Of a stretch of 64,000 bases of DNA, positions 41,101 through 44,100 are shown piece after piece; the stretch's first letter is position 1, and the number at the start of each line of letters is the position of its first letter. The DNA comes from Escherichia coli (lineage in GTDB: Bacteria; Pseudomonadota; Gammaproteobacteria; Enterobacterales; Enterobacteriaceae). A program made the position numbers. Where the stretch lies: NCBI RefSeq assembly GCF_022846255.1, contig NZ_AP025682.1, one strand, 5' to 3'.

Positions 41101-44100
41101 ACATTAACTTTATAATAAGTTTGCCAAAGGTAATTAACAGGACAGGGCTTATAATAATAGTTAGCTTACTGTGTATTAATTTGATGTAATGCATGATGCA
41201 GATACTGAGAAAGCATCTGCATCTTTCGGTGGTGTTATTTGACCAGCTCAGGTGTTACCTGACTCACCGCATTGGTGTAGTAAGGAGCCCCCCAGCCCGG
41301 TTCCGGCCAGAATGCACCATAGCCGTAATCCCACAAGTTATAGGTGGTATTAACCACTTCTCTCAAATGCCACACCTGGATGCCCTGCATATTCACTTCC
41401 AGGAAGTTATACGGGACTTTATTGATAAAGCCAGGTTGTTCACCCTGAATGGTACCGAGGATGGTAACAAAGTGATTACGATAGTTCACTGGATCAAGGA
41501 AGCCGCTTTGTCTGGCGAGCAGTCGGCCCTGATAGTTGGCTTCAATATCAGGCTTCGCATAGCTATCCAACGGTAATACAGCGATTTCTAACAACGTATC
41601 CGTTTTGCCATTGATAACGTTGATAACCTTCCCGCCAAAGCGCGCTTGTTGACCAACATATAACCCCGGCTGGTTATGAACAGCAACAAAACTTTTTTGA
41701 ATATCAGGTTGGTTATTGCCTTTGATATTTTGCGGAATTGAACTACATGCGGCAAGCAAAAATGAAAGGCTGAGGATGAGTGCACCTTTTGTCATGTTCA
41801 TGTTACTATCCTTATCAACAAATATTAAAACCATAATAGATATTTCTTTATAGTTTTCATCTGATTCTGAGGCGATATGCCTGATAGTAACGTAAACCTG
41901 TCTGATGTTTATATCTCTTCTGTTTAGTTGAGTTCAGTTAATTTTTGGGCGTGGCATGAGTATCCATTGTTCCATAATCTATATTCAGAGGTTTTTAATC
42001 TTTTCGTGTCTAATATTATTTATCTGATTAAGTATTGATTGTGTCTTTTGCGGAAGTGGTGTCGAGCTTATCGTTTCAATGTTATTAATAAGACTTACAA
42101 GTTGAGCCTCAACTTTGAGTAGTCTGCATTTGTATATGTGGTGTTCGTATGGCACGCATTAATTTGTTGGCGTTGTTGCGCTAAATCAAATTGTTCAGAG
42201 GTGTATCCATTCTCCAGAGAATGGGGCATTAATGGGGTGTTGTTCTTCCCGGTTATCACAAGGCCACTTCGGTGTGTCTGGCGTTTTAACATTATCGGTA
42301 TTTGTTGTGCAGTTATAAATATCACCGTTATATGTATTTATTACACCTGGGGTAAAGTCAATTGACATAACATTCCTTATTCATCATTTGTTTTATGCTA
42401 AGATTTTTAAATTGGATAATTAGAACAGGAATGGATTTTCTTCTACATACAGTAAATATAATGCGTCATATCTTCCTGATATAATTACCTTTGACTTCTC
42501 TTTTATTTCCATCTGGTAATATTTGAGTGCAAAAAAAGGCAATAATCATATCGCAAAAGAAAACGTTAACAACTATCGAAAATGCTCGTTTTAAAAAGGT
42601 ATGATGTTCTCTGATAGTGTGTGAAGTGATATTTTTGTGATGTTTTAGATATGTAATAATAAAATAGGTTAACGTATGTTGAAATTATTTATTGTGTAAA
42701 CCACTGATAAATCATAATCCAGTACATCTTTAAACTGCTGCACTGTATCGCTGATAACTAAGCAGCTCACTGATACACCATGCTGGACGCGATAATTGGA
42801 ATCTCACGCAGGGAGTACTGTGTAAATAGCAAAATCGCCTGATACGCTACGACTGTCAGGCCTACAAATAACATACAATTCATCGAATTATCATAACGTT
42901 GTAGGTCGGATAAAACGCGCCAGCGTCGCATCCGACATAAATAAAGCGCATTTTTCTAACAACCTGTGGGGGAATATAGCCGCTTTATTTCAGGCGATTA
43001 CCCGCCTCATCAACCACTTTCTCGCCATCTTCCTTGGTGAACGCGCCTTTTTGCGCATCTGGCAGAATTTCCAGCACGACTTCTGAAGGGCGGCACAGGC
43101 GAGTTCCCAGCGGCGTCACCACAATCGGGCGATTAATCAGAATCGGGTGCTGAAGCATAAAGTCGATTAACTGATCGTGAGTAAATTTATCTTCTGCAAG
43201 GCCCAGTTCCTCATACGGCTCGACGTTTTTACGTAGCAGCGCGCGTACGGTAATCCCCATATCGGCAATGAGTTTTACCAGCTCATCGCGCGTCGGTGGT
43301 GTTTCCAGATAATAGATAATGGTCGGTTCTGTACCGCTGTTGCGGATCATCTCCAGCGTATTACGTGACGTACCGCAGGCCGGGTTGTGATAAATGGTAA
43401 TGTTGCTCATATCAGTATCTCATTACGATGTGAAAGAGAGGTGTAGCGCCAGCGCCACCAGAGTTACAAACCAAAGCGGACAAGTCAAAAACACATATGG
43501 TTTAACGAATATGTAAGTGTAGAGAAAGGTGTAGGTGTGAATTAAGCGTTGGGCATTCATTTGAAAGGAGGTCTGAATCAGGACGTAAAAAAACCGACTT
43601 CGCGTCGGTTTTTTTACTGTTCAGCCCTGAGTTGGTGGCTCTGGCTGGAGTGAGATAGCCATCATCTAACGCATCAATGCTAATACCATACTGAAACTAT
43701 TGCAAGGACATGCTGGTTTTATAACCCGCAAGTACTGTATGATTATCCAGTTGGTTCTGAGACATTTTCACTCTGGCAATGCGCATAAACGCTTTCAAAG
43801 TCCTGGTCTGAAGTACGGGTGGTGCCGTTAACTGATGCTCTGGCCGGAGTGAGATAGTCGTCATCTAACAATGAGACATGCGCCGTGACAGGCAATGGAT
43901 GAGTAAGCGGATGCATTCTCACTCCATCGCATGGAGAAAACGGGTGATTGATAAAGCAATCATCGTTCTTGGGGCGTTAATTGCGCTGCTGGAACTGATC
44001 CGCTTTCTGCTTCAGCTTCTGAACTGATAGCGGAAACGTAGCTAAGGGCTAAGAGCACACTACTCTTAGCCCTTTAACATTTAACGCATTGTCACGAACT

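Follow-up and report, generated by a model that had tools for sequence, protein, structure and literature searches.

The closest described counterpart of the locus analysed here is the chromosomal arsenic locus of Escherichia coli phylogroup B2, in which arsC stands alone between gor and slp (Sutterlin et al. 2018, AAC 62:e00209-18, PMC5923176). The same study found B2 to be arsenite-sensitive, with MICs below 128 mg/L in isolates other than the one considered here, and noted that, in phylogroups B2, D and F, hem/chu genes lie close to ars. Congruent rMLST and arsRBC trees led its authors to conclude that arsR and arsB had disappeared from B2 and not been gained in the other phylogroups, and the reason for the retention of arsC in B2 was explicitly left open (PMC5923176). 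The same arsC-only locus, together with a low arsenite MIC, has been reported for ST131 (PMC9731454). According to these published data, the locus is a marker of the extraintestinal-pathogenic B2 lineage and accounts for the sensitivity of that lineage to arsenite.

Here we describe this locus in a stretch of 64,000 nt from E. coli (the window), where the gene order is slp, a yhiS remnant, arsC, agr, dinQ and gor. Judged by its sequence, the locus is the phylogroup B2 arsRB-deletion allele that has already been described. Its gene content, position, chu/hem neighbours and inferred direction of loss are all like those of the B2 locus of PMC5923176, and nothing in it differs in kind from the loci of PMC5923176 and PMC9731454. 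These papers stay at the level of gene presence and absence; what is added here is a junction placed within a promoter spacer, signs of decay in the arsB tail and a pN/pS comparison. With arsRBC of K-12 (b3501-b3503) the locus shares a homologous operator and -35 element, the same arsB-arsC spacer and the same flanking genes. Unlike the K-12 operon, it has no -10 element, no arsR and none of the first 413 of 429 arsB codons, leaving neither a repressor nor a pump. ArsC of plasmid R773 (structure 1I9D) also matches the product of the gene in the window over its full length, aligning end to end at 286 bits with no gaps and with Cys12 and the arginine triad alike, whereas the gene in the window is a chromosomal allele without a partner pump. 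The features of the locus are collected in Table 1.

Table 1. Features of the arsC-agr-dinQ region, in window coordinates.
Feature	Position	Strand	Basis or remark
arsC, glutaredoxin-dependent arsenate reductase gene, intact	42985..43410	-	141 codons plus stop; ORF list
arsB-arsC intercistronic spacer TGAGATACTGAT	43411..43422	-	same as K-12
arsB 3' end remnant, non-functional: 15 codons FVTLVALALHLSFTS plus stop	43423..43471	-	collinear with K-12 arsB codons 414-429
Chimeric 45-codon ORF running from promoter-region DNA into the arsB tail	43423..43560	-	ORF list
Candidate -10-like hexamer AACTCT within the arsB remnant	43460..43465	-	17 bp downstream of the kept -35
Deletion junction	43472..43473	.	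three-way alignments; uncertain by about 3 nt
Retained upstream half of the ars promoter, an ArsR operator-like sequence that overlaps the -35 TTGACT (43488..43483)	43482..43514	-	
Second weak promoter-like site TTAATT-18-TACACT, putative	43516..43545	-	7.4 bits, same matrix as for the hybrid promoter
AgrB-family antisense RNA gene, only copy	43585..43669	-	Rfam RF02891, 91.5 bits (gathering score 40), positions 1-84 of 84
Bidirectional intrinsic terminator hairpin of the agr small RNA	43587..43615	-	between agr and the ars remnant
dinQ agr-complementary repeat	43837..43869		
dinQ toxin ORF	43944..44027	+	ORF list; PGAP annotation of PA45B

The interval 43411-43586 lies between the arsC start codon and the terminator of the agr small RNA, and blastn against the K-12 prlC-hdeB region divides it between two collinear segments. 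Window positions 43471..42700 are collinear with the final 49 nt of K-12 arsB, arsC and the DNA downstream, and positions 43685..43474 are collinear with K-12 from agrB to a point 38 nt short of the start codon of arsR. The 1,686 bp that separate these segments in K-12 (locus positions 4491-6176; genome 3,648,490-3,650,175) have no counterpart in the window and comprise the -10 of the ars promoter, the whole of arsR and codons 1-413 (of 429) of arsB. The left break therefore sits in the spacer of the ars promoter, between the -35 and the -10. Alignment to the K-12 arsRBC-agrAB region, which the initial annotation of this DNA had named as the way to place the deletion, puts the junction at 43472/43473, a position that also rests on three-way alignments of the window with the promoter and arsB-end sequences of K-12, SCU-105, MS1685 and NY1601. 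A search for microhomology at the junction found 2-3 ambiguous nucleotides at most and no useful stretch, so that no deletion mechanism can be assigned. Queries with K-12 ArsR and ArsB (tblastn) found no further homologue of either protein in the 64-kb window, where the best ArsR score was nothing better than E = 0.03. With no arsR, no full-length arsB and no native -10, the locus is not a complete arsRBC operon.

The initial annotation had proposed, from the sequence alone, a deletion of arsR and of most of arsB, and the 1,686-bp gap together with the absence of a homologue elsewhere in the window bears this out: no other arsR or arsB turned up there, and the short hydrophobic tail does align to ArsB. 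The tail had been put at about 20 codons. A tail aligning to ArsB is present, but its homologous part amounts to 15 codons and a stop. Likewise, the predicted loss of arsenite efflux fits the lack of arsB in the window and the lowered arsenite tolerance seen in published MICs of other isolates (PMC5923176; PMC9731454). The chimeric 45-codon ORF that runs from promoter-region DNA into the tail has no family match and is annotated in none of the genomes examined. Its start also lies upstream of the hybrid promoter described below; it was rejected as a small protein and is probably not a gene.

The junction is widespread. A 190-nt query spanning it was covered over at least 80% of its length in 1,095 of 5,426 complete E. 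coli genomes, with 98.9-100% identity among the full-length matches sampled, and in all remaining genomes the alignment breaks exactly at window position 43474. A 1,201-nt query running from arsC to gor was covered over at least 80% in 1,109 of the 5,426 genomes. With a 616-nt query of arsC plus the junction, ATCC 11775 (the type strain) is 100% identical and strain 536 is 99.4% identical; both are reference strains of phylogroup B2. In the carriers that were aligned, the junction is the same base for base (8/8). Since the same junction is found in about 1,095 complete genomes, it reflects one old, inherited event and neither an artefact nor recurrent deletion. The arsC-only state had been called odd and potentially deleterious in the initial annotation; the combination is real, but it is fixed in about one-fifth of complete genomes and is evidently tolerated.

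The reductase gene itself is intact, as first described: its 141-codon ORF encodes a protein that scores above curated cut-offs and keeps the catalytic residues. ArsC is 95.7% identical to its K-12 counterpart (94.8% at the nucleotide level), the codon differences being 16 synonymous and 6 non-synonymous. It matches profile NF007456 at 305.6 bits (cut-off 242) over residues 1-141 of 141 and profile TIGR00014 at 135.6 bits (cut-off 106.05). Cys12, Arg60, Arg94 and Arg107 are all present; in R773 ArsC, Cys12 is catalytic and the three arginines form the oxyanion-binding triad. A pseudogene flag on arsC is absent from all eight B2 loci examined.

Upstream of the junction, half of the ars promoter survives. 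This segment aligns to K-12 locus positions 4450-4490, just upstream of arsR, and the extent of the operator in the window was set from the K-12 ArsR binding site. An ArsR binding site of up to 33 bp, located at the wild-type -35, has been reported (PMC9134189). Where the K-12 promoter reads TTGACT-TATCCGCTT/CGAAGAGA-GACACT (the slash marking the break), the window reads TTGACT-TGTCCGCTT/TGGTTTGT-AACTCT, with arsB sequence standing in for the native -10. In a crude sigma-70 matrix, the hybrid TTGACT-17-AACTCT scores 8.0 bits, more than any other site in 43640..43400; at 10.1 bits, the native K-12 TTGACT-17-GACACT likewise ranks first in its region. The hybrid site has the -35 and the spacing of the native promoter, and the two positions of the -10 that are most conserved are unchanged in it. 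Its candidate -10 agrees with the consensus at only 2/6 positions and is polymorphic across B2, as AACTCT or AACGCT, with no shift toward the consensus. As matrix scores of about 8 bits occur about once per 600 positions, with about 0.4 chance sites expected in an interval of this size, the hybrid promoter is a candidate only. The initial annotation had regarded arsC as promoterless, which goes too far. The native -10 is indeed deleted, but the ArsR operator and -35 are kept, with a weak -10-like hexamer at a distance of 17 bp.

A consensus promoter and terminator scan of 42900-44100 returned no promoter between the agr terminator and arsC. This empty result was discarded because the scan likewise fails to pick up the native ars promoter of K-12, which is in experimental use, and both agr terminators. 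The hairpin at the end of agr folds at -19.4 kcal/mol (z -5.3) on the minus strand and at -22.2 kcal/mol (z -6.4) on the plus strand, and it should limit read-through from agr toward arsC. The arsC leader (43480..43405) folds no more stably than shuffled sequence (z +0.74). Because there is no ArsR in the cell, any transcription of arsC would be constitutive. Among the rows listed in uropathogen transcriptome papers and supplements, the arsC entries are paralogues at other loci only (UTI89_C2811; CFT073 yffB). In the listed rows of the PMC9241551 supplement, UTI89, a B2 strain, has a second gene annotated as arsC, arsenate reductase (glutaredoxin), at another locus (UTI89_C2811), and this gene is clearly transcribed there, its normalised counts being about 250-530. 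Such a paralogue could overlap functionally with the orphan arsC and be mistaken for it in expression tables.

The two coding remnants of the operon have diverged to different degrees. In the arsB tail, 41/49 nt are as in K-12, compared with 47-48/49 among intact alleles, and divergence of the 49 nt is 10-18% between B2 and non-B2 and 2-4% among intact alleles; three amino-acid replacements fall within its 15 codons. For arsC, comparisons of B2 with non-B2 give a pN/pS of 0.12-0.27; the values are 0.13-0.17 where both strains have intact operons and 0.08-0.16 where both belong to B2 (pairwise Nei-Gojobori, with 1-8 nonsynonymous differences per comparison). We infer that the arsB tail is dead DNA that drifts at or above the synonymous rate. 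The arsC values show no detectable relaxation, which suggests that the gene is still under purifying selection and hence that it probably still makes an active reductase, although with such small difference counts this reading of selection is suggestive and not proof. The polymorphic arsC codons within B2 (eight loci) comprise 5 synonymous and 4 non-synonymous, and the replacements L101Q and L113P could be damaging. Changes fixed in B2, from a comparison of the window with L001, L003, L006, L007 and L013, number 5/49 in the tail (43423-43471) and 2/~102 at arsC synonymous sites (Fisher p = 0.04), a count in which the strict rule for "fixed" undercounts variable synonymous sites. The denser substitutions in the tail may be due to chance, a cluster of mutations at the deletion or this strict counting.

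Together, the structure and history of the locus very probably go back to one ancestral deletion of some 1.69 kb with its remnants inherited, and this analysis yielded no evidence that contradicts such an account. The -10, arsR and arsB codons 1-413 were removed in an old event at the base of B2, which joined the ArsR operator and -35 to the last 15 arsB codons and then to intact arsC, and all sampled descendants have inherited this junction. With ArsB efflux and ArsR regulation gone, arsenite tolerance would be low, as in the published MIC data. Transcription of arsC, if any, would be of low level and unregulated; it might start at the hybrid TTGACT-17-AACTCT or at TTAATT-18-TACACT farther upstream, or it might be read-through past the terminator of agr. 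As a whole, the locus is with good confidence best explained as the B2 allele of the chromosomal ars locus, in which arsC has been retained.

Other histories are harder to reconcile with these remnants. If the arsC-only state were ancestral, arsR and arsB would have been inserted in the other phylogroups, an order in keeping with the fact that B2 is often placed close to the root of the E. coli tree. However, 49 nt of arsB in frame to its stop, and an operator and -35 without a -10, are sensible only as remnants, and this arsB fragment and broken promoter set the direction of change as loss; congruent rMLST and arsRBC trees led to the same conclusion (PMC5923176), and we consider an ancestral state highly improbable. 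That the deletion is an assembly artefact or private to this isolate is scarcely credible, as the junction is present in about 1,095 independent complete genomes and ATCC 11775 is identical over 616 nt. It is also conceivable that the divergent tail was imported from a plasmid-type arsB by a recombination that made the deletion at the same time, and the density of B2-fixed changes in the tail, higher than at arsC synonymous sites, would fit this. That p value is marginal, though, and affected by the strict counting noted above, and the best plasmid tails (R46 and Klebsiella plasmids) reach 90.3% identity over 72 nt, compared with about 89% for K-12, and share one B2-specific change only. A plasmid origin of the tail was rejected, since the tail is no closer to plasmid than to chromosomal alleles, and import by recombination appears improbable.

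Within the account of a single inherited deletion, the state of arsC can be read in more than one way. From what the DNA contains, the chances that the gene is expressed and functional appear roughly even. The main rival to this is that arsC is a silent relic, untranscribed after the loss of the -10 and shielded by the agr terminator, with inactivating mutations not yet fixed. We regard this as somewhat doubtful, though a serious prospect. The deleted native -10, the weak and polymorphic candidate in its place and a strong terminator 175 bp upstream of arsC all count against continued function, and by a rough estimate, with 9 polymorphic codons in B2, zero disruptions in 8 sequences would not be improbable under neutrality. 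The lack of a promoter hit between terminator and arsC in the consensus scan would point the same way, but carries no weight given that the scan misses the native K-12 promoter. Against silence stand the contrast between an arsB tail diverged by 10-18% and an arsC with just 1-2.5% nonsynonymous divergence, the pN/pS of arsC equal to that of intact operons, and the preservation of all catalytic residues. A stronger form of the functional reading, that arsC is actively kept in B2 and expressed constitutively from the hybrid of -35/operator and arsB sequence for a role independent of ArsB, is possible but rather unlikely. ArsC might then reduce arsenate while the arsenite left by some other path, or it might serve a different reduction coupled to glutaredoxin. 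Why an apparently stranded reductase stays intact and constrained across B2 is a modest question; its answer could reveal an ArsB-independent role of ArsC and would leave the understanding of arsenic resistance unchanged.

Beyond the ars remnant, a single agr RNA gene is followed by dinQ, in agreement with the agr-like repeat and dinQ recognised in the initial annotation. This part of the window resembles dinQ-agrAB, a type I toxin-antitoxin locus in K-12 (Weel-Sneve et al. 2013, PMC3567139) in having the dinQ ORF, the antisense-target repeat and an AgrB-family RNA with its terminator. Unlike K-12 and a phylogroup-D-type strain, which have both agrA and agrB, the window has one agr copy and is missing a 231-bp repeat unit. 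The single copy has an agrA-like 5' end followed by agrB-downstream sequence. It is complementary to the dinQ repeat at 28/31 positions; for K-12, our own count is 30/31 for agrB and 24/31 for agrA, the latter given as 25/31 in PMC3567139. In K-12, DinQ is neutralised by agrB only. Several other B2 genomes carry a further repeat-mediated deletion of 199 bp (AR_0055 L004 2512-2845; L009, L011 and L012; alignment A1 columns 234-432). It lies between a dinQ-internal repeat and the agr repeat and takes away the LexA box/dinQ promoter and the agr promoter, leaving the dinQ ORF. Judging from evenly spaced rows of the 1,201-nt query matches, roughly two-thirds of the arsRB-deletion carriers may have it. 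In the window, which retains the dinQ LexA box CTGGATAATCATACAG (43750..43735, minus strand), two substitutions, 43753 (G) and 43755 (T) on the plus strand, are present in the window only among five aligned sequences and lie 3-5 nt from this box.

On the other side of arsC, slp (41235-41834, minus strand) is an intact ORF of 199 codons in the window and is frameshifted in the closely related PA45B. In the gap between arsC and slp (~41990-42370), PGAP gives only a frameshifted, truncated hypothetical gene, the yhiS remnant, in all B2 loci examined; at the yhiS position, K-12 has an IS5-interrupted yhiS. Farther along, the heme oxygenase gene chuS (39467-40495, plus strand) directly adjoins dctR, and chuA is present in the matching PA45B locus. 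The position of chuS beside dctR agrees with the hem/chu genes described near the ars locus (PMC5923176).
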